In this document: positions 2,639-55,299 of the stretch, piece after piece
How the letters are laid out: each line of letters opens with the position of its first letter
Numbering within the stretch: position 1 is the first letter of the stretch
Source of the DNA: Candidatus Woesearchaeota archaeon
Lineage (GTDB): Archaea > Nanobdellota > Nanobdellia > Woesearchaeales > DSVV01
Length of the DNA: 64,000 nt
Reading direction: 5' to 3'
Assembly: GCA_016219865.1 (NCBI GenBank)
Contig: JACRKF010000021.1
Location: forward strand, 2,224 to 66,223
The notes under the pieces: generated by a model
Told to the model about the DNA's origin: nothing
What the model saw: the letters and a program-made list of their open reading frames with translations, nothing else
Databases searched by the model: none
Made by a program: the position numbers and the translations under genes

Positions 2639-3850
2639 TTATTTTTCTGAGGTATTAAATTCTGATATTATTTTTGTTATTACATCAATAGGAGCAGTTG
2701 TTTTTATAGCATATTCATTAAAATGTGTTCTTACAGCTTTAAATCCATTCTGTTTGCAGTTCTTAACAATTAGATCAAATTTTGGAATTTGTTTGAGATT
2801 ATTCTTTTTTACAAGAGCATGGATATCATAAAATCCAACTATATTAATTGTAGATTCTTCTTTAATAAGCTGTAAAAGCTTAAGTAATTCTGTTTCTTCC
2901 TTATACAATTTATTTCTCATAACATTATCTAAAATTGCTTTTACTGTTTCTTGTTTATTAATTTCCCCAACCCAACATGGACCTGCATACTGCATTTGTT
3001 GATTGCAATCATCATTTTTAGAATCATCATTTCTAGAATCTGTTTTAGAATCAACTTTACAATCAATATTATTAAAATGATTTATATCTATTTTCATGCA
3101 TTTATTGCAACAAAGAACATATTTGTGCTGTTTATTGATTGCATCTGCCTTTTCTTTTCCTTTCTCGCAGACAAAGAATATTCGCATATAATGCTGTGCG
3201 CTATAACTCAGTATTGGTGTTAATGCTTTTTCATATTGACTTGCAATCAATTGCGCTTTTCTGATCAATATTCTTATTCCTATTTCATGCATCAATTCAT
3301 TCCGCATTGGTTTTGCCCAATACTTTCTTTTGCAAGCGTTTTCAAATGTTCCAGCTAATGCGCTAGTATCAGTTGCAGTTACAGCTAATATTCCATCTCT
3401 TGCAAGCCGTTTTATTGACGAATCAATAAATGGATTTGGAGAACCAAAAGGATCAATATCAATATAATCAAATCCTTTCCCGTCTAATAATGCTTTATTT
3501 GCATCATTGCATGAAACGGTAATTTTATCTTTTGAAGCATTAAAATCTAAATGATTAAGTTTTAAATTCTCCTTAATTAATTCAACAGCATTCTCACTGC
3601 AATCATTTACTAAGATATTTTTGATTTTTCTCGCAGGAAGCTCTTTAATCAACCTGATGCTTCTAATTCCTGACGCTGCAAGAATATCTGCAACTTGGAG
3701 ATGATTTCTCTTCTGCGCTCTCAATAATTCAATAGTTATATCTCTATTCATCTTCATGACAGGATTATAAAACACTGGAAGCTCTTTTGAAACTTTCTGC
3801 TCAGAATAAATCTTGCAAAAAACTTTTCCTTCTTTGATTTTTTTCTCCAT
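2639..3850 (-). CDS. trm1: tRNA (guanine26-N2)-dimethyltransferase Trm1
   Basis: Motifs VFYNPVM, LDAF/AASGIRSIR and DIDPFGSP are present. There is a Cys-rich insertion (CCNKC...C). The ORF-track start at 3907 is TTG; the ATG at 3850 (MEKKIKEG...) fits Trm1 N-termini. Confidence 0.85.
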   Translation of the reverse strand: MEKKIKEGKVFCKIYSEQKVSKELPVFYNPVMKMNRDITIELLRAQKRNHLQVADILAASGIRSIRLIKELPARKIKNILVNDCSENAVELIKENLKLNHLDFNASKDKITVSCNDANKALLDGKGFDYIDIDPFGSPNPFIDSSIKRLARDGILAVTATDTSALAGTFENACKRKYWAKPMRNELMHEIGIRILIRKAQLIASQYEKALTPILSYSAQHYMRIFFVCEKGKEKADAINKQHKYVLCCNKCMKIDINHFNNIDCKVDSKTDSRNDDSKNDDCNQQMQYAGPCWVGEINKQETVKAILDNVMRNKLYKEETELLKLLQLIKEESTINIVGFYDIHALVKKNNLKQIPKFDLIVKNCKQNGFKAVRTHFNEYAIKTTAPIDVITKIISEFNTSEK

Positions 3851-4182: not shown

Positions 4183-5103
4183 ATGCTTGAAAATACCTCA
4201 GAATATCCAATATTTAAGTCAGTAAATGAATTATTAGACAATTCTGCTGAAAATATGGCAGATAGAATCATCTCTGCCGGCATTAAACAGAAAATAGAAA
4301 ACATATTTGCTTTGCTTAAAGGATTGCAGCACAAAACAAAAGTATATGTCGCTTTTTCAGGAGGAGTTGATAGTTCATTGATTCTCAAGCTTGCGCATGA
4401 TGTTTTAAATGAGAAAGTTATTGCAGTTACAGGAATTTCTTCTTCAGTTGCGAAAAATGAGATTGAGATTGCAGCAAGTATATCAAAGACTATTGGAACA
4501 CAGCACATTTTCCTCAATACAAATGAGATGAATGATGAAAATTATTTAAAAAATCCAACAGATCGTTGTTATTATTGTAAATCAGAGCTTTACAAACAAT
4601 TATCTTTATACATAAACAAGGAGAAAGTCACTGATTTTATAATTCTTGACGGCGCAAATTTTGATGACTTGCAGGATTTTCGCCCAGGAACAAAAGCTGC
4701 AAAAGAATTTCAGGTTAGAAGCTTGCTTCAAGAAGCAGAAATGACAAAAGAAGAGATTCGTTTAGTCTCCCATTTATTGCATATTCAAGTATGGGATAAA
4801 CCATCTACGCCATGTTTATCTTCTCGTGTTGCATTTGGTGAAAGAATAACTTCAGAAAAACTTAGTAATATTGAAAAAGCAGAGAATCTAATCCATTCTC
4901 TTGGAATAAAACAAGTTCGTGTAAGATATCATGCAAATTCAATTGCAAGAATTGAAATAGATCCTCTTGATTTCCGAAAAATATTTGAACATTATGAATC
5001 TGTATCAAAAGCGCTAAAACAACTTGGGTTCCAATGCATTACAGTTGATTTAGAAGGATATAAAAGGGGAAACTTGCATTTATTAAATAATAATAATAAA
5101 TAG
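4183..5103 (+). CDS. larE: PP-loop ATP pyrophosphatase, LarE-like sulfur-insertion protein
   Basis: The PP-loop VAFSGGVDSSL is present, along with a conserved Cys motif DRCYYCK. It lies upstream of larB and larC. Confidence 0.65.
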   Translation: MLENTSEYPIFKSVNELLDNSAENMADRIISAGIKQKIENIFALLKGLQHKTKVYVAFSGGVDSSLILKLAHDVLNEKVIAVTGISSSVAKNEIEIAASISKTIGTQHIFLNTNEMNDENYLKNPTDRCYYCKSELYKQLSLYINKEKVTDFIILDGANFDDLQDFRPGTKAAKEFQVRSLLQEAEMTKEEIRLVSHLLHIQVWDKPSTPCLSSRVAFGERITSEKLSNIEKAENLIHSLGIKQVRVRYHANSIARIEIDPLDFRKIFEHYESVSKALKQLGFQCITVDLEGYKRGNLHLLNNNNK

Positions 5104-5202
5104 ATAAAAAACCTAATTACAGATTCCCTATGTCAGAATTGCCAATATCAGAAGATCTTACAAAAAGATTTATTTTTGTAAGATTTTCTAAGAAGTGATA
5201 AA

Positions 5203-5988
5203 ATGAACATTCAACAACTATTAAAAGATTATAAAAAAGGAAAACTGTCTCATAACAAGTTACTATTTCACCTCAAAGAGTATCCTTTTGAAGATTTAGG
5301 ACACACCAAGATAGATCATCACAGAGAGTTGCGCGCAGGCTTTCCTGAAGTAATCTTTGGAAAAGGAAAAACATCAGAACATTTATTCTCAATAATTGAA
5401 AGATTATATCTTAAAAGAGCAGTGATTATCATAACAAAAATCGAGCAAGATATAGCGCAGCAGATTCAGAGAAAATATGATTCTGTTGAATATCACAAAC
5501 TAGCAAAAACGCTTGTTATCTATAATGAATTAAATTTTTCAATAAAATTGAAAAATTTAAAAAAGAAAAAAACACTTAAGACAGGGATTTTAATAATTAC
5601 AGCTGGCACATCGGATATTCCAATTGCTGAAGAAGCTGCAGTTATCTGTGAACAAATGGATAATAAAGTAGAGAAATTATATGATATAGGTGTGGCAGGA
5701 TTGCATCGTTTGCTAGCAAATAAGCAAAAGATATTTGATGCAAAAGTAATTATTGTAATCGCAGGCATGGAAGGAGCATTAGCAAGCGTTATTGCTGGAT
5801 TAGCTAATTGCCCTGTTATAGCTGTGCCAACAAGCATTGGCTACGGCGCAAATTTTAAAGGATTAGCAGCATTATTATCAATGCTCAACTGCTGCTCACC
5901 TGGCGTTACTGTTGTCAACATTGATAATGGCTTTGGCGCAGGCTATGCAGCAAGTAAAATATTGAATGTTAATAAGAGAAAAATTTAA
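5203..5988 (+). CDS. larB: nickel-pincer cofactor biosynthesis protein LarB (PurE-like carboxylase/hydrolase)
   Basis: There is a PurE-like C-terminal domain (ITAGTSDIP...VIAGMEGALASV). The lar gene neighbourhood supports the call. Confidence 0.7.
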   Translation: MNIQQLLKDYKKGKLSHNKLLFHLKEYPFEDLGHTKIDHHRELRAGFPEVIFGKGKTSEHLFSIIERLYLKRAVIIITKIEQDIAQQIQRKYDSVEYHKLAKTLVIYNELNFSIKLKNLKKKKTLKTGILIITAGTSDIPIAEEAAVICEQMDNKVEKLYDIGVAGLHRLLANKQKIFDAKVIIVIAGMEGALASVIAGLANCPVIAVPTSIGYGANFKGLAALLSMLNCCSPGVTVVNIDNGFGAGYAASKILNVNKRKI

Positions 5989-12865: not shown

Positions 12866-14332
12866 TTACCCCTTCAGCACACCCAATGGCACCAATTTCG
12901 CTACAATCTTGCCAATTCCTGCTTCATGTGACACTCGCACAACTTCATCAACATCTTTATAGACAGCAGGAGCTTCCTCAGATAAACCTTTCCATGATGC
13001 AGCTTTAATATGAATATTTCTTTTCTCAAGCTCATTCTTTATTTGCTCTCCTTTGAATAATTTATTGGCTGCATTTCTGCTCATCACTCTTCCTGCGCCA
13101 TGAGGAGTGCTTGCAAATGTTTCTTGCATTGCTTTGTCAGTGCCAACTAATACATAAGATCCAGTACCCATGCTTCCAGGCAATAATATTGGTTGCCCAG
13201 TTTTCTGATAATCTTCAGGCAATTCTTTATGATTTGGCCCAAATGCTCGCGTTGCGCCTTTTCGATGCACATAGAGCTTTGTAGCAACATCATCTATAAT
13301 ATACTCTTCAACTTTGACAATATTATGAGCTACATCATAGATTGTTTTCAATTCCACATTTTTGCCATTAAATTCTGTTCCAAATACTTTAGTAAAAGAC
13401 TTTCTAATATTATAAACCATCAATTGTCTGTTGCACCAGCCAAAATTTGCTGCAGCTGACATTGCTTTTAGATAATCTTGCGCAATAGGAGAACTTGTTG
13501 GCGCATACGCCAAATCTTTCTCTGGCAATTTTGCAACCAACTCAGGAAGTTCATTCTCAATTCTTCGAAGAAAATCAGTGCAAACTTGATGCCCTAATCC
13601 TCTGCTGCCTGAATGAATCATCACAACAATCTGCCATTTATGATAAATTCCAAAAGCTTTTGCTATTTTCTCATCAAAAATTTCATCAACAATCTGTATT
13701 TCTAAAAAATGATTGCCTGCGCCAAGCGTCCCAAGCTGATTCTTTCCTCTTTTCTTAGCTGTTGGTGAAACCTTGCTTGCATCTGCTTGTTTCATTTGCC
13801 CATATTCTTCACAATGATCAATATCATGCTGTGTTGCATAACCATGCTCTTTTGCCCATTCCAATCCGCCATTAAGAACTTCATCTAATTCTGCATGTGT
13901 TAAATGCACATTTGATTCACTTCCAACACCGCAATGCACATTCTGAAATAAAACATCTAATAATTCTTTGATTCTTGGCTCAACATCTTCTTTTGTTAAT
14001 TGTGTTGAAAGAAGACGAACGCCGCAATTTATGTCAAAGCCAACTCCGCCGGGAGAAATACAACCATTATCAACAGGAAAAGCAGCAACGCCGCCAACAG
14101 GAAAACCATATCCTTGATGCGCATCTGGCATAATTAAAGCATTTTTTTGTATGCCTGGCATCTCTGTCATATTTTTTGCTTGCATTATTGCATTATCTTT
14201 GACAAGATTCTCCATCAATGCTTCAGATGCAAATATTCTCACAGGCACACTCATTGAATTTCGCTGCTCAAGCTCATATAGATAATCATTCACTTTCTTG
14301 ATTTTCATTCCTGATACTTCAAACTTTTTCAT
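12866..14332 (-). CDS. rtcB: RNA-splicing ligase RtcB
   Basis: Carries GAGNHFLEIQ, HSGSRGLGHQV and PHGAGR motifs. 488 aa. Confidence 0.95.
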   Translation of the reverse strand: MKKFEVSGMKIKKVNDYLYELEQRNSMSVPVRIFASEALMENLVKDNAIMQAKNMTEMPGIQKNALIMPDAHQGYGFPVGGVAAFPVDNGCISPGGVGFDINCGVRLLSTQLTKEDVEPRIKELLDVLFQNVHCGVGSESNVHLTHAELDEVLNGGLEWAKEHGYATQHDIDHCEEYGQMKQADASKVSPTAKKRGKNQLGTLGAGNHFLEIQIVDEIFDEKIAKAFGIYHKWQIVVMIHSGSRGLGHQVCTDFLRRIENELPELVAKLPEKDLAYAPTSSPIAQDYLKAMSAAANFGWCNRQLMVYNIRKSFTKVFGTEFNGKNVELKTIYDVAHNIVKVEEYIIDDVATKLYVHRKGATRAFGPNHKELPEDYQKTGQPILLPGSMGTGSYVLVGTDKAMQETFASTPHGAGRVMSRNAANKLFKGEQIKNELEKRNIHIKAASWKGLSEEAPAVYKDVDEVVRVSHEAGIGKIVAKLVPLGVLKG

Positions 14333-14405: not shown

Positions 14406-14858
14406 TTATATGTCCACGACAACCTGCACTATCCATAACCCATTTTTTTGTTCTTTAATTATCATATCATTATATGTAATTGCTTTCAATGAACCATGCG
14501 CATCATAAGCTTTATAGGAATCTCCCTTAACAATTGCTTTCAATGTATACATTTCAAACTTTTTTGTGATTGTTAATGAATCAACATAGCTTACAATAAG
14601 ACCTTCAGTATCTAATAATATAACAAACTGATCAAGAAAATCAAATAATAATGTATCCAACTTTGGCGCTTTTATTTCAATTTCTTTTCTAACTACTTGC
14701 TTAACCTTTTTAATATCAGTAAGCATATTATACATTGCTAGCACAGCATTAGCAAATGCTTCTTCTAAAGTTTTGCCATATGCTTGAAATTTAGCTTCAG
14801 AAGTATGATCAAGATATTTAAACTTAGGTACTGCGCTGTTTGGTTCCATTATCTCCAT
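14406..14858 (-). CDS. archease (RtcB activator)
   Basis: The N-terminal FKYLDHTSEAKFQAYG matches archease. It sits immediately upstream of rtcB. Confidence 0.85.
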   Translation of the reverse strand: MEIMEPNSAVPKFKYLDHTSEAKFQAYGKTLEEAFANAVLAMYNMLTDIKKVKQVVRKEIEIKAPKLDTLLFDFLDQFVILLDTEGLIVSYVDSLTITKKFEMYTLKAIVKGDSYKAYDAHGSLKAITYNDMIIKEQKNGLWIVQVVVDI

Positions 14859-14926: not shown

Positions 14927-15775
14927 TCATTTCAAACCTAATTGTTCTTTAGTCTTTGCATTAAGAACATGCAACCCATCCAAATGTTGATCCATATTGA
15001 AATCATAAGGAAATGAGTTCTCTAATAGCTCTTCAACTAACAGTTTACTCTTACTGTTTAATTGACTTGATGTTATTTTTATTCTGTCTAAAGCAGCATC
15101 CATGGTTATTTCATGAGTAGATACATAATATAAAACAGCCCGTAACCCTGAATAAACATACCTAACCTCAGCGCCACTAGCGCGATTTCTGCGATGCACA
15201 CAAGTCTCTTTTAACACTTTTAAAATATCCAATGTCTGAGCAACTTCAACATATTCACAGGTACCCAAATCTTTAAGCATCTGTAATTCATAAAACTTTC
15301 TAAGGTAACTATCTACCCTCTCTTCATAATTTTTAAATTCCTTACCATCCGAATAATAATTATAGGGTTCTTTAATACGATCTGGAAATATCTCTGCCAA
15401 TCCTGGAGCAATTTTAAAAGCATCTTTTCGAATCTTTTCTCTATGACATTCTAATTTATCTGTAAGCTCCCTCATCTTGGAAGAATAACTTTCTTCTAAG
15501 ATAACTCTTCTTTCTTCAAGTTGATGTAATTTTAAAGCATAATCTTTCTCTAAGTCAGTTCTTCTTTTCTGTAAACTATCCATAACTGTTTGTTCATATG
15601 ACGCCAATTTAAGTTCTAATGAACCAACAAGTTCTCTTAATTTCTCTTCTGCAGCTCTTTTTGATTCATCTAAAGATTGTTGTAAAACAGCATCATTTAG
15701 AGTTCTTAAACTAGATTCCATTTCTTGTATAAAAGTAGTTAAAGAAGTTCTGCTGAGATCAAGCGATTTAATCAT
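14927..15775 (-). CDS. hypothetical coiled-coil protein
   Basis: 282 aa, largely helical/coiled-coil. Co-directional with, and 8 bp from, the upstream ORF. Confidence 0.4.
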   Translation of the reverse strand: MIKSLDLSRTSLTTFIQEMESSLRTLNDAVLQQSLDESKRAAEEKLRELVGSLELKLASYEQTVMDSLQKRRTDLEKDYALKLHQLEERRVILEESYSSKMRELTDKLECHREKIRKDAFKIAPGLAEIFPDRIKEPYNYYSDGKEFKNYEERVDSYLRKFYELQMLKDLGTCEYVEVAQTLDILKVLKETCVHRRNRASGAEVRYVYSGLRAVLYYVSTHEITMDAALDRIKITSSQLNSKSKLLVEELLENSFPYDFNMDQHLDGLHVLNAKTKEQLGLK

Positions 15776-15782
15776 TTCCTCT

Positions 15783-16346
15783 CTAATGTTTGAACACTAA
15801 TTGATAATATTTCTTTGAGAAATAAGCGTTTGCAATCATAGGTATGCCTGTTGCATTAGCAACTGCTATTACTAATTGTTTCTCATTTTCAACAGTATAT
15901 TGCTGCTCTAGAATCAATCTTTCCAATTGATCTACTACAATTCCAATATCTTTAGAACATATTGGTTTCTTTTTAGTAGGAAGTTTATATAAATGTGAAA
16001 GCTTTATTTCATTATCACAAAAAACTAATAAAGTACTTGTTTTCGCTGAGAATAATCCATTTTTTGTTGTACTATATTGGATACTAACATAACTAATTAA
16101 TGATTCTTTTGATAATTGTAAATCTAAGCTTATAAGTTTTTCATTTGCAACAGAATCAATTGCAGGTTCCTGAGGAGTTATATCAACTAAACGTAAACAT
16201 GCATTAAGATAGTCCTTAAAATTATCTAATTTGACGATTAAACCACTAATATCTGCAGGTAGAGTTAGAATCTGATCAATACCAATTGATTCTAACTTTC
16301 CAATATATGGAGCTGCAATAGCTTCCGGACTTGATTGCTTTGCCAT
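15783..16346 (-). CDS. hypothetical protein
   Basis: 187 aa with no recognisable motif. First gene of the co-directional block leading into archease-rtcB. Confidence 0.4.
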   Translation of the reverse strand: MAKQSSPEAIAAPYIGKLESIGIDQILTLPADISGLIVKLDNFKDYLNACLRLVDITPQEPAIDSVANEKLISLDLQLSKESLISYVSIQYSTTKNGLFSAKTSTLLVFCDNEIKLSHLYKLPTKKKPICSKDIGIVVDQLERLILEQQYTVENEKQLVIAVANATGIPMIANAYFSKKYYQLVFKH

Positions 16347-29262: not shown

Positions 29263-30960
29263 TTACTCTTTCCTCTTAAACTTCTTCTCAAGTTCATACA
29301 ATGAATAATGTATTATTGCTGGACGTCCATGCGGGCAAGTGAATTTATTTTCGCATTGAAACAATTCTTCCAGAATTCTATAGATCTCTGGAAATTCTAA
29401 TACATCATGCGCTTTTACTGCGCTTCTGCAAGCTGCTCGTGCTATTCTCTCCTCCTTAATTTCCTCAATTTTCACCGTTTCGCCAAGATTTAATTCATCA
29501 ATAACATCATAGATTAATTGTTTCTGTTGTGTTCTTCCAAAAACAGAAGGTAATGAGCGAAGCAGATAACTATCATTACCAAATAACTCAAGATTAAACC
29601 CAGTGCTTTGCAGCAATTCAATATTCTGCTCTATAATAACGCGTTCATTTGGTGTTACATGCAACACAATTGGTGTTAATAATTGCTGCGCATGTATATG
29701 CTTATCTTTGCATTCTTGCAAGAATTTCTCATACATAACTCTTTCATGCGCTGCATGCTGATCAATCAGAAGCATTCCTTTTTCATCTTCTGCAATGATA
29801 AATGTATTATGTATCTTTCCAATTAATCGTATATTCAACACTTGTTTTAAAGGTAATAAAGACGGCGCTTGCGTGAATGCAGTTTGATATTCAATAAACT
29901 GCCCTGCTGAGGACAATATAAGTTTTGCATCAATCTCTTTTGGTCTTGATTCAATCACTTCCGGAATCAAATTTTCTTCAACTAAGCAATCGATAACTGC
30001 TTTCTTTATTGCTTCATAGATTAAATATTCTTTATCAACTCTGACAATTGATTTTGAAGGATGCACATTAACATCAACTTTCTGCGGCAGAATAGTTATA
30101 TTTAAAATAAAGATCGGATGCCTTCCATGAAACAAGAAAGTGCCATAACCATCATAAACAGCTTTGTTAAGAACATAATTTTTAATATACCTTTTATTAA
30201 TGTACAAGCTTTGATATTCTTTATCTGTCCTTGCTGCATTTGGCTTGCCGATATAACCATTAATCTCAACATCGCCATTTGCAAAGTTAACAGCCAGAAA
30301 CTCTTTTGTTAAATCTCTGCCATATATTGTTATAATATTATTCAGCAGATCTGTTGTAGACGGTGAATTAATAATTGTCTTCCCATTATGCGTCAACAGA
30401 AAATGCATCTCTGGATGGATTAATGCATAACGAGTAATGATATCAATAATATGATTAAATTCCACTGCAATTCCTTTCAGATGTTTTTTTCGCGCAGGAA
30501 CATTGTAAAAAAGATCAGAAACAGCAATCATTGTGCCTTGTTTTGCGCTGACATATTCCTGCTTTAAAACAATGCCATTTTCAACTGTTATTGAAACACC
30601 AACATCATTTTCTTTTGTTTTTGTTATCATTTCAAGCTTAGCAATTGAAGCAATACTTGCTAATGCTTCTCCTCGAAATCCAAGAGTTGTAATCTGAAAC
30701 AAATCCTGAAGATTATTTAATTTTGATGTAGTATGGCGCTGTATACTCATCACAACATCATCTTTCTCAATACCTGATCCATTGTCACTCACTTTAACAA
30801 GAGATTTCCCGCCTTCAATAACTTCAATGGAAATATGTGTTGCTTCTGCATCAATTGCATTCTCAACCAATTCTTTTACAACAGAAGCAGGTCTTTCAAT
30901 AACTTCTCCAGCTGCAATCTTATTTATTAAATCTTTATCAAGTTCTTTTATTTTACTCAT
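29263..30960 (-). CDS. mutL: DNA mismatch repair protein MutL (with endonuclease motif)
   Basis: GHKL motifs ELVENAIDA, DNGSGI and GFRGEAL are present. The C-terminal DQHAAHERVMYEKF is the DQHAxxExxxxE nicking motif. Confidence 0.9.
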   Translation of the reverse strand: MSKIKELDKDLINKIAAGEVIERPASVVKELVENAIDAEATHISIEVIEGGKSLVKVSDNGSGIEKDDVVMSIQRHTTSKLNNLQDLFQITTLGFRGEALASIASIAKLEMITKTKENDVGVSITVENGIVLKQEYVSAKQGTMIAVSDLFYNVPARKKHLKGIAVEFNHIIDIITRYALIHPEMHFLLTHNGKTIINSPSTTDLLNNIITIYGRDLTKEFLAVNFANGDVEINGYIGKPNAARTDKEYQSLYINKRYIKNYVLNKAVYDGYGTFLFHGRHPIFILNITILPQKVDVNVHPSKSIVRVDKEYLIYEAIKKAVIDCLVEENLIPEVIESRPKEIDAKLILSSAGQFIEYQTAFTQAPSLLPLKQVLNIRLIGKIHNTFIIAEDEKGMLLIDQHAAHERVMYEKFLQECKDKHIHAQQLLTPIVLHVTPNERVIIEQNIELLQSTGFNLELFGNDSYLLRSLPSVFGRTQQKQLIYDVIDELNLGETVKIEEIKEERIARAACRSAVKAHDVLEFPEIYRILEELFQCENKFTCPHGRPAIIHYSLYELEKKFKRKE

Positions 30961-53101: not shown

Positions 53102-54298
53102 TTAATGTTTAGCGCTTTCTTCCAACGCAATCAATGCAGGCAATTTTTCTCCTGAGAATAATGCTAATGCTGCCCCGCCTGCTGTTGATAAAAGAGTAAT
53201 CTTATCTGCAATACCTAATTTCTCTAATGCTGCGCTGCTATCACCGCCGCCTATAATGACTGTTGCATCTAATGTTGACAGATATTGAGCTATTTTCTTT
53301 GTTCCTTGTGAAAATTGTTCAATCTCATATACTCCTAACGGTCCATTCCATAAAACAGTTTTCGCTGTTGATAGATGCGCAATAAAATTATCAGTTGTCT
53401 TCTTACCAATGTCTAAAGCCAACATTTTCTCAGGAATCTTTGTGCAATCAACTGATTGAGATTTTGCTGTTGCATCTATTTTATCTGCAATTACAACATC
53501 AATAGGCAGGATAATCTTATTTTTGTATTGTTCTAATAACTTTCGCGCTTCTTCTAATTGTGAAGCATCAACAACAGAATTGCCTACTTCATAACCAAGC
53601 ACTTTGTAGAAAGTAAATATCATTGCTCCTGCTAAAAGGACTTTGTCAACTTTTGGCAGGATATATCTTATTACTGGAATCTTTGTTTCTAACTTAATGC
53701 CGCCAATAATTGCAACAAAAGGATGTTTTGGATTGTTTAAAGCAGCAGTAATTGTACTAACTTCTTTTTCAAGATGCAATCCAGCAGATGATGATAAGAA
53801 CAATGGCAAAACTGACATTGAAGCTGAATCTCTATGAGAAACTGAAAAAGCTTCATTAACATATACATCAGCATTTGCTGCTATTCTCTGCGCAAAAGAA
53901 TATCTTATATTCTTATCATCAGATTCTTCCTCCGAGTAAAATCGTACATTCTCTAAAAGAATTATTTCTCCCTGCTTCATTGCAGAGATTTGTTTTTCAA
54001 CTATCTTTCCTATGCAATCATCTAGTTTTTTTACAGGTTTGTTCAATAAACAAGATAATTCTTTCGCAACAGCATCGCAACGTAATTTCTCAACTGCTTT
54101 TCCTTTTGGTCTTCCAAGATGTGTGAGAAGAATAATCTTTGCTTTTTTTTTCAGAAGATATTGTATTGTTGGCAATGATTCTTTAATTCTTGAATTATCA
54201 ACAACATTTCCTTTATCATCTAATGGAACATCATAGCCAACTCTGACAAGAACTCGTTTATTAGTTACATCCATCTTTTTTAGTGTGCAAAATTTCAT
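53102..54298 (-). CDS. pgk: phosphoglycerate kinase
   Basis: KRVLVRVGYDVPLD at the N-terminus, and a C-terminal GGGDS...AGG-type motif. The true start may be the internal ATG at 54274. Confidence 0.9.
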   Translation of the reverse strand: MKFCTLKKMDVTNKRVLVRVGYDVPLDDKGNVVDNSRIKESLPTIQYLLKKKAKIILLTHLGRPKGKAVEKLRCDAVAKELSCLLNKPVKKLDDCIGKIVEKQISAMKQGEIILLENVRFYSEEESDDKNIRYSFAQRIAANADVYVNEAFSVSHRDSASMSVLPLFLSSSAGLHLEKEVSTITAALNNPKHPFVAIIGGIKLETKIPVIRYILPKVDKVLLAGAMIFTFYKVLGYEVGNSVVDASQLEEARKLLEQYKNKIILPIDVVIADKIDATAKSQSVDCTKIPEKMLALDIGKKTTDNFIAHLSTAKTVLWNGPLGVYEIEQFSQGTKKIAQYLSTLDATVIIGGGDSSAALEKLGIADKITLLSTAGGAALALFSGEKLPALIALEESAKH

Positions 54299-54869: not shown

Positions 54870-55078
54870 ATTTTTTTCCTCCGTAAAAAAAATAAAAATA
54901 GGTTATATTTTTATTCTTTAAATTGAGATTTAGGAGAATAAGATTTCTTATTCTTCAAAATTGTTCATGAAGTGAACAATTTTGTTCTTTATCTCCAGTA
55001 TAAGCAAGCCTAGACAAGCTTATCTCTCGAATGAGAATAAGAATAATTGTTGGTTTATAAAGTTTTTGTGAAATAAAA

Positions 55079-55225
55079 TAGCCCCGCTCGGATTCGAACC
55101 GAGGTCTTCGGATTTCTGTATCAGATGCTATATCAAAGACATCTAATTCCAAAGTCCGAAATGATTGGCCACTACACTCCGCAAAATCTTTCTCAGTTAT
55201 CTTGAAAAGACTCTTCTACGGGGCT
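55079..55225 (-). tRNA. tRNA-Gln(UUG) candidate, about 147 nt, apparently containing two introns
   Basis: On the minus strand there is a 7-bp acceptor stem (AGCCCCG/CGGGGCU) and a perfect T-arm CUCGG-UUCGAAU-CCGAG. The anticodon stem UCGGA/UCCGA flanks CUUUGG|about 35-nt insert|A, consistent with a canonical 37/38 intron. A second insert of about 36 nt lies between U8/A9 and a D-arm-like GUAGUGGCCAAUC. No encoded CCA. Confidence 0.7.
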
Positions 55226-55299
55226 ATCCAATCATTTCCGAGCCAAGCTATTGCTAGTGAGAAAATTAGTGGTATTTAAATTTAACTACAAGAAAACGC

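Follow-up and report, generated by a model that had tools for sequence, protein, structure and literature searches.

A tRNA-Gln gene with two inserts

The window, that is the whole 64-kb stretch of DNA analysed here, carries at positions 55225..55079 of its minus strand a 147-nt gene for tRNA-Gln(UUG) with two inserts in it; the organism is a Woesearchaeota (DPANN) archaeon. Read along the minus strand, from 55225 to 55079, the gene has the order AGCCCCGUAG-AAGAGUCUUUUCAAGAUAACUGAGAAAGAUUUUGCGGAG-UGUAGUGGCCAAUCAUUUCGGACUUUGG-AAUUAGAUGUCUUUGAUAUAGCAUCUGAUACAGAA-AUCCGAAGACCUCGGUUCGAAUCCGAGCGGGGCUA, and it comprises the following parts:

55079..55225, minus strand: whole tRNA-Gln(UUG) gene, from A1 to the discriminator A73, CCA not encoded (covariance model R1 match 55079-55183, 54.8 bits)
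55216..55225, minus strand: exon 1, AGCCCCGUAG, tRNA positions 1-10 (in-silico splicing and BHB geometry)
55177..55215, minus strand: intron 1, 39 nt, at 10/11, reading A / AGAGUCUUUU / CAAGAUAACUGA / GAAAGAUUUU / GCGG / AG (BHB geometry, covariation)
55149..55176, minus strand: exon 2, UGUAGUGGCCAAUCAUUUCGGACUUUGG, positions 11-37, with the D-arm, the 5' strand of the anticodon stem, the anticodon UUG and G37
55114..55148, minus strand: intron 2, 35 nt, at the canonical site 37/38 (retained in the L001 ortholog)
55079..55113, minus strand: exon 3, positions 38-73, with the 3' strand of the anticodon stem, the variable loop AGAC, the T-arm, the acceptor 3' strand and A73
55071..55078, minus strand: T-rich trailer UUUUAUUU, immediately 3' of A73, a probable termination signal (read from sequence)

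The acceptor 5' strand AGCCCCG (55225..55219) is perfectly complementary to CGGGGCU (55086..55080), with A73 at 55079, and the T-arm of exon 3 reads CUCGG/UUCGAAU/CCGAG. In the raw 64-kb window, neither ARAGORN nor Rfam at its gathering score returned a single tRNA, the Rfam tRNA model giving the raw gene 27.1 bits against a gathering score of 29. Used in E-value mode across all 64 kb, the same model gave this gene as the sole tRNA signal, with 55181..55085 aligned to model positions 6-65 and a 38-nt insert in the anticodon loop. Since the standard finders missed this gene, further multi-intron tRNAs could be hidden in the window.

When nucleotides 11-49 (39 nt) and 78-112 (35 nt) of the pre-tRNA were both deleted in silico, a 73-nt cloverleaf appeared, which ARAGORN called as tRNA-Gln(UUG); the coordinates, the isotype and the two-insert description proposed for this gene in an earlier note were thus right. 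In the spliced 73-mer, the acceptor stem is 7 bp long, the D-arm is GUGU/UCAU with A14, G18G19 and A21, and the anticodon loop reads CUUUGGA; the 73-mer aligns without gaps to intron-less orthologs. Deletion of one insert at a time led ARAGORN to misplace the splice (anticodon UUA) or to build a poor acceptor stem. With one insert at 10/11 (39 nt) and another at 37/38 (35 nt) in a colinear arrangement, the gene is a multiple-intron tRNA gene. It is neither split nor permuted, the three exons being colinear, on one strand and within 147 nt; the sequence preceding it is complementary, not identical, to the tRNA 3' end and hence is not a permuted copy. Nor are the inserts group I or group II self-splicing introns, which are large structured ribozymes with Rfam families of their own: they are just 35-39 nt long, and Rfam searched to E<=10 shows nothing but tRNA there.

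Splice motifs of the two introns

The archaeal splicing endonuclease cuts in two 3-nt bulges located on opposite strands and 4 bp apart, after the second nucleotide of each bulge. Bulge-helix-bulge (BHB)-type motifs with this geometry were found at both exon-intron junctions, including that of the 5' insert. The canonical anticodon-loop intron announced by the earlier note was recovered as 35 nt at 37/38, with its BHB motif formed: C32U33U34U35 and ACAG make up the central helix, in which one U.C is mismatched, G36 G37|A and A A|A38 are the bulges, the 5-bp anticodon stem lies outside and the 8-bp helix AUUAGAUG/CAUCUGAU inside. As modelled, intron 2 is a strict hBHBh' motif, that is a canonical BHB intron.

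In intron 1, a 10-bp inner helix joins 55214..55205 with 55192..55183 (AGAGUCUUUU/GAAAGAUUUU) and a 4-bp central helix joins GCGG at the intron's 3' end (55182..55179) with C5C6G7U8 (55221..55218), the two bulges of 3 nt each being A9 G10|A and A G|U11. With an outer helix of at most one pair (C4-G12) and an h' of 10 bp, the modelled motif is of the relaxed HBh' form; as it has no outer helix, it would need an endonuclease of broad specificity. The second, non-canonical intron near the D-arm that the earlier note had suspected is thus present, at a length of 39 nt and not about 36 nt, and the BHB geometry moves it from a site after A9 to 10/11. In the window gene itself, cuts at 8/9, 9/10 and 10/11 yield an identical product and are indistinguishable because of the AG..AG redundancy. 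Where relatives have G9G10 and their intron ends in AA, 10/11 alone restores the GUGGUGUAG of intron-less orthologs. On the BHB geometry and these G9G10...AA orthologs, the site of intron 1 is assigned to 10/11. An alternative register, CCGUAG/UUGCGG with the second AGA bulged, is isoenergetic and preferred in the minimum free energy (MFE) fold; it was rejected, as it leaves 7 bp between the bulges and gives a wrong mature sequence.

Orthologs at the dph5 locus

The tRNA-Gln gene adjoins dph5 (diphthine synthase), and a search of GTDB genomes for this gene led to 52 loci, mostly labelled Woesearchaeota or Nanoarchaeia. With a covariance model trained on spliced and intron-less tRNA-Gln genes, a tRNA-Gln was located downstream of dph5 in 16 of the 52 loci. 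The best dph5 match (86% identical) lies in RIFCSPHIGHO2_02_FULL_32_12, locus L001, where both introns are present at identical sites in a tRNA-Gln downstream of dph5. Compared with the window, L001 differs within both introns and the helices are kept, as exemplified by a C-G to U-A change in the inner helix of intron 1. The intron sets at the orthologous loci are:

10/11 + 37/38: window, L001
10/11 only: L002
10/11 + T-loop: L036 (UUG gene)
10/11 + 37/38 + T-loop: L036 (CUG gene)
D-loop only: L006, L033, L034, L018 (CUG gene)
37/38 only: L004, L016
37/38 + T-loop: L025
none: L003, L013, L018 (UUG gene), L020, L024 (both genes), L035

Across orthologous tRNA-Gln genes, insertion sites were seen at 10/11, 20b/21-21/22, 25/26, 29/30, 37/38, 48/49, 53/54 and 57/58-59/60, with 0-4 introns per gene. 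On the Woesearchaeota contig L036, a tRNA-Gln(CUG) with three introns and a tRNA-Gln(UUG) with two (4504-4660 and 5129-5246) lie about 470 nt apart; both contain a 10/11 intron, and their central helices differ (CUGU/ACAG and CCAU/AUGG). The T-loop introns of L025, L036, L053, L055, L062, L069, L077, L082 and L087 end in a shared ...ACGAAAG or ACGAAAA immediately before the UCC/AUCC of the T-stem. These ends resemble the loop sequence UUCGAAU, which suggests that the introns share an origin or follow one pairing rule. Finally, the terminal ~20 nt of the tRNA (...GGGAAUCUGCCCGGGGCUA) recur once or twice in L004 (~4527-4548), L013 (~3603-3623 and a second copy) and L018 (~4358-4380), no more than 90-120 nt past tRNA-Gln genes devoid of a 10/11 intron; these additional copies could be att-like integration remnants or parts of another disrupted tRNA.

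A family of 62 genes with a 10/11 intron

Metagenomes were scanned with a pattern in which a gap of variable length separates exon 1 from the beginning of exon 2. The scan returned 66 loci which, together with the window, L001, L002 and L036, amount to 62 distinct tRNA-Gln genes, drawn from genomes as well as metagenomes. Every one of the 62 has standard pairs at all four positions of the central helix, a count to be read with the scan pattern in mind, as it preset C5, Y6, R7 and the last two nucleotides of the central 3' strand and thereby forced the first central pair and, for the second, the purine or pyrimidine class of each partner, leaving pairs 7 and 8 free. Six variants of this helix were found: CCGU/GCGG (40), CCGU/ACGG (10), CUGU/GCAG (7), CCAU/AUGG (3), CUGU/ACAG (1) and CUGU/ACGG (1). 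The bulges are AGA or GGA on one side and AAU or AGU on the other, the intron length ranges from 16 to 39 nt, and AGCCCYRURG is conserved across family members. Among 44 distinct motif cores, 97.7% of the cells are paired versus 83% after shuffling (0/500 shuffles reach 97.7%) and 35-52% on sliding the partner. Both sides are changed in 65 cells, and compensatory change affects 6/9 pairs. This covariation provides strong comparative evidence that the motif is a real RNA structure under selection. The two-insert architecture, too, is well beyond chance: it recurs in L001 and in 62 distinct tRNA-Gln genes, and its helices covary. A generic scan for 10/11-type introns in non-Gln tRNAs, run on loci preselected for tRNA-Gln, yielded random-looking matches only.

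Two metagenomic tRNA-Gln(UUG) genes of the family appear to contain four introns each: L053 (Ga0209541_10035747, minus strand, gene start at 324 in reversed coordinates), with apparent 10/11, 21/22, 37/38 and 59/60 introns, and L069 (Ga0213870_1004105, 2440-2619), with apparent 10/11, 29/30, 37/38 and 59/60 introns. Deletion of the four inserts gives in both cases a 73-nt tRNA called by ARAGORN. The stated maximum for an archaeal tRNA gene is three introns (PMC8450103), the Asgard data sets lying outside this comparison.

The putative 5' leader and promoter

Upstream of A1, two further elements were delineated:

55226..55250, minus strand: putative 25-nt 5' leader UAGCUUGGCUCGGAAAUGAUUGGAU (folding and duplex statistics; extent inferred)
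55273..55280, minus strand: TATA-like box TTTAAATA, -55..-48 from A1 (sequence)

The usual archaeal spacing between TATA box and start, applied to this TATA-like box, would place the transcription start near -25. For nucleotides -25..-12 of the leader, the predicted partners are A73 and the 3' strands of the T-stem and of the acceptor stem (UCCGAGCGGGGCUA), and for nucleotides -10..-3 (AUGAUUGG) the predicted partner is CCAAUCAU of the D-arm, the pairing with exon 2 amounting to 8-11 bp in the window gene.

Folded without flanks, the precursor forms the acceptor stem and not the central helix of intron 1, because seven G-C-rich pairs outcompete four. When 25 nt of upstream sequence are added, the MFE fold switches and nucleotides 5-8 pair with the intron (-63.5 kcal/mol, z=-5.0), the 3'-end helix of this fold being made of UAGCUU.GCUCGGA of the leader and UCCGAGC.GGGCUA. 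Between the window and L001, the leader shows two differences only, both located in the 3'-end helix and both with pairing kept: a U to C change opposite A64 changed to G64 (U-A to C-G) and a C to U change opposite G63 (C-G to U.G).

The complementarity was measured as a duplex between the 35-nt leader and the last 18 nt of the tRNA, with z computed against shuffled leaders. In the 62 genes with a 10/11 intron, the mean dG is -17.0 kcal/mol, the median z -3.3 and z<-1.64 is reached in 82%, versus -6.4 kcal/mol, -0.05 and 0% in the orthologs without it (n=13). This control set is small, and because the sequences are related to one another the p-values are inflated. Pairing of the leader with exon 2 reaches z<-1.64 in 27% of the genes, in addition to or instead of pairing with the 3' end. 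We considered the leader as the supplier of the missing outer helix of intron 1 through exon 2; this pairing is significant in about a quarter of the genes and its register varies, and it was kept as a secondary feature. The leaders themselves are diverse, forming 47 clusters at 70% identity. The promoter follows the same division, the TTTAWAWW motif having its median position at -50 when the 10/11 intron is present (n=62; clusters at -42 and -50..-55) versus -33 when it is absent (n=13). Combined with the general spacing rule, these positions would imply leaders of ~12-25 nt with the intron and of a few nucleotides without.

Across the family, the predicted probabilities (P) of the two competing structures depend on the leader:

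no leader: P(central helix) 0.04, P(acceptor stem) 0.96
native 30-nt leader: P(central helix) 0.83, P(acceptor stem) 0.14
shuffled leader: P(central helix) 0.22, P(acceptor stem) 0.75
far-upstream DNA as mock leader (58 genes): P(central helix) 0.14

P(central helix) exceeds 0.5 in 53/62 genes with the native leader, 9/62 falling short, and in 0/62 without a leader. In-silico removal of intron 1 raises the mean P(acceptor) from 0.14 to 0.38, a partial flip that does not take place in the window gene; there, after splicing, nearest-neighbour folding gives -40.8 kcal/mol for the leader-bound form versus -23.7 kcal/mol for the cloverleaf.

Splicing machinery and genomic context

The earlier note had also pointed to RtcB and archease in the window, and the Pfam matches bear this out:

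12866..14332, minus strand: RtcB RNA ligase (PF01139, 567 bits)
14406..14858, minus strand: archease, RtcB cofactor (PF01951, 122 bits)

RtcB joins exon ends bearing a 2',3'-cyclic phosphate and a 5'-OH. A link between this pair and the splicing of the tRNA-Gln is plausible; they are housekeeping genes 40 kb away and do not constitute specific evidence. EndA was not found among 30 window ORFs scanned against NCBIfam or Pfam. Two ORFs on the minus strand, 14927-15775 (282 aa) and 15783-16346 (187 aa), adjoin the RtcB-archease pair on the same strand; they gave no Pfam match and no PDB sequence relative, and neither was found to be an endonuclease. The genes of the neighbourhood are archaeal (diphthine synthase, S15, FtsZ, Elp3, RtcB and archease). 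In this otherwise archaeal DPANN context, the window also encodes a full-length MutL homolog of bacterial type (29263-30960, minus strand; TIGR00585, 547 bits) and a phosphoglycerate kinase (53102-54298) whose top match is a bacterial PGK/TIM model.

Weighing the explanations

We consider it very probable that the gene is a genuine, functional tRNA-Gln(UUG) with two protein-spliced introns, the splicing of intron 1 apparently being assisted by the leader. A decaying pseudogene, in which the 39-nt insert would be debris, could be missed by the standard finders and score under the Rfam gathering score in its raw form, as this gene does; however, the exons are perfectly tRNA-like when joined, the gene is the sole tRNA-Gln found in the 64-kb window and occupies the conserved dph5 position of its relatives' tRNA-Gln(UUG), and the insert keeps the exact motif geometry and covaries across 62 genes, which makes decay highly improbable. 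Even less credible is a gene with the 37/38 intron alone. Such a gene is what ARAGORN reports when only intron 2 is removed, with a similar call in L002 (5628-5704), but the alternative acceptor stem that it proposes includes a mismatch besides several G.U pairs and leaves the perfect AGCCCCG/CGGGGCU pairing out of account; moreover, the sequence that it uses is not conserved in the family, whereas AGCCCYRURG is.

A more serious contender, although an unlikely one, accepts both introns and holds that the complementarity between the leader and the 3' end is unrelated to the presentation of the 10/11 motif: as a quality-control or protective device, the leader might keep CCA addition, aminoacylation or exonucleases away from the 3' end until the introns are out, or the complementarity might be an inverted repeat acting at the DNA level. 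A blocking role of this kind would be in line with the leader helix still winning in the window gene after in-silico removal of intron 1, and with those family members that have leader/D-arm rather than leader/3'-end pairing. Against a leader unrelated to splicing, the complementarity is confined to genes with the 10/11 intron, being found in 0/13 orthologs with other introns or none, and in folding the leader tips the balance from the acceptor stem to the central helix; a DNA inverted repeat, for its part, would not tolerate changes of the G.U type.

A possible mechanism of leader-assisted splicing

Leader-assisted splicing, the reading that we prefer, starts from what these loci display: the exon/intron anatomy, the geometry of a motif that is conserved and covaries, and a leader complementarity and a promoter distance that are both associated with the 10/11 intron. 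From these features and from modelled folds, we infer that the leader is transcribed and takes part in folding, and likewise which enzymes act, in what order the steps follow and how the leader is released. Transcription would proceed from the TATA box ~50 nt upstream and start near -25, giving a ~175-nt precursor in which the central helix would compete with the far stronger 7-bp acceptor stem. A stretch of the leader complementary to the final ~14 nt of the tRNA would capture the 3' strand and a second stretch would bind the D-arm; by sequestering the 3' strand, the leader would leave positions 5-8 free to form the splice motif. With the 3' end captured, both splice motifs could form, the splicing endonuclease would cut four bonds in the two motifs, and RtcB and archease would ligate the exons, these last two steps following the known pathway. 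Leader removal would come next and then the addition of CCA, which must be added because none is encoded. As the leader-bound form remains the more stable one after splicing in the predicted folds, tertiary folding, modification, a helicase or a nuclease would have to help. In the window's subfamily, the leader/D-arm helix stops 2 nt before A1, a spacing that is not general; speculatively, the endonuclease itself might cut the -1/+1 bond there.

More specifically, the leader may act as an "anti-acceptor" in cis, pairing with the tRNA 3' end and sometimes with the D-arm, in an architecture previously undescribed; this is a tentative proposal, to which we accord somewhat less than an even chance. 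If correct, it would impose an order of processing, splicing coming before 5'-end maturation, and it would explain the persistence of an intron at a site that competes with the acceptor stem.

Comparison with known systems

Thermoproteales and Thaumarchaeota are well known for tRNA genes with multiple and non-canonical introns (PMC4090602, PMC8450103), as exemplified by the tRNA-Pro(UGG) of Pyrobaculum islandicum with introns at 25/26, 37/38 and 56/57 (PMC4090602). The window gene resembles the multi-intron tRNAs of Thermoproteales in having several short, protein-spliced introns, one canonical and the others in BHB or relaxed HBh' form. It differs from them in belonging to a mesophilic DPANN archaeon of 32% GC, in a central helix drawn from the acceptor stem and in a leader complementary to the 3' end. 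Moreover, 10/11 is absent from the sites listed in PMC4090602 (3/4, 20/21, 22/23, 25/26, 29/30, 30/31, 45/46, 53/54, 56/57, 59/60 "etc."). In Asgard archaea, where such introns were recognised recently, more than 90% of the tRNA genes of Atabeyarchaeia and Freyarchaeia have introns and more than half have several (PMC11291895); as here, abundant non-canonical and multiple introns are missed by standard tools, the phylum being different. The earlier note had held multi-intron tRNAs to be restricted to a few archaeal lineages, and the restriction is looser than this, covering Thermoproteales, Thaumarchaeota, DPANN, Hadesarchaea and Asgard (PMC5829648, PMC8450103, PMC11291895).

Closest to the window gene in taxonomy is the DPANN survey of Kaneta et al. 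(2018, PMC5829648), which includes one Woesearchaeota genome, reports a marked rise in non-canonical and multiple introns and suspects undetected disrupted tRNAs. It gives its counts per genome in a figure, and its main text does not describe a 10/11 site or a role of the leader. DPANN endonucleases are reported there to be of the alpha4 type with an extra L3 loop and to accompany many disrupted tRNA genes. The same source describes the pre-tRNA-Glu(UUC) of Methanopyrus kandleri (PMC5829648), which, like the window gene, combines a strict BHB at 37/38 with a relaxed HBh' on the 5' side, the excision of the relaxed intron depending on the endonuclease type; unlike in the window gene, that intron lies in the D-loop and is not in competition with the acceptor stem, and no need for a leader is described.

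The split and permuted tRNAs, including those of Nanoarchaeum equitans (PMC4090602, PMC3218864), share with the window gene the pairing of sequences beyond the mature tRNA that enables an endonuclease substrate. There, however, one flank pairs with the other and the flanks themselves make up the BHB helices, either in trans or once permuted, whereas the leader of the window gene would pair with the mature tRNA (3' end and D-arm) and act indirectly, by freeing nucleotides 5-8. In the literature covered here, no case came to light of a 5'-proximal intron accompanied by a leader that is complementary to the 3' end of its tRNA. Multi-intron tRNAs in DPANN are thus already known and the window gene adds one more, the combination of the 10/11 site with an "anti-acceptor" leader being a probable, rather than an established, new variant.

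Significance

As tRNA finders miss such genes, DPANN genomes seem to be devoid of essential tRNAs, which distorts estimates of completeness as well as inferences on decoding. Moreover, the 62-gene family offers a clean natural dataset for following how tRNA introns come and go at a single orthologous locus, their sites lying at 10/11, in the D-loop, at 25/26, 29/30 and 37/38, in the T-arm and in the T-loop. If the leader is a cis-folding switch, splice-site choice in archaea would depend on sequence beyond the mature tRNA, and gene-finding models for 5'-proximal introns should take in the leader. These tRNA-Gln genes would then also provide a directly testable example of pre-tRNA processing in a set order, and of a promoter position, a leader and an intron that coevolve.
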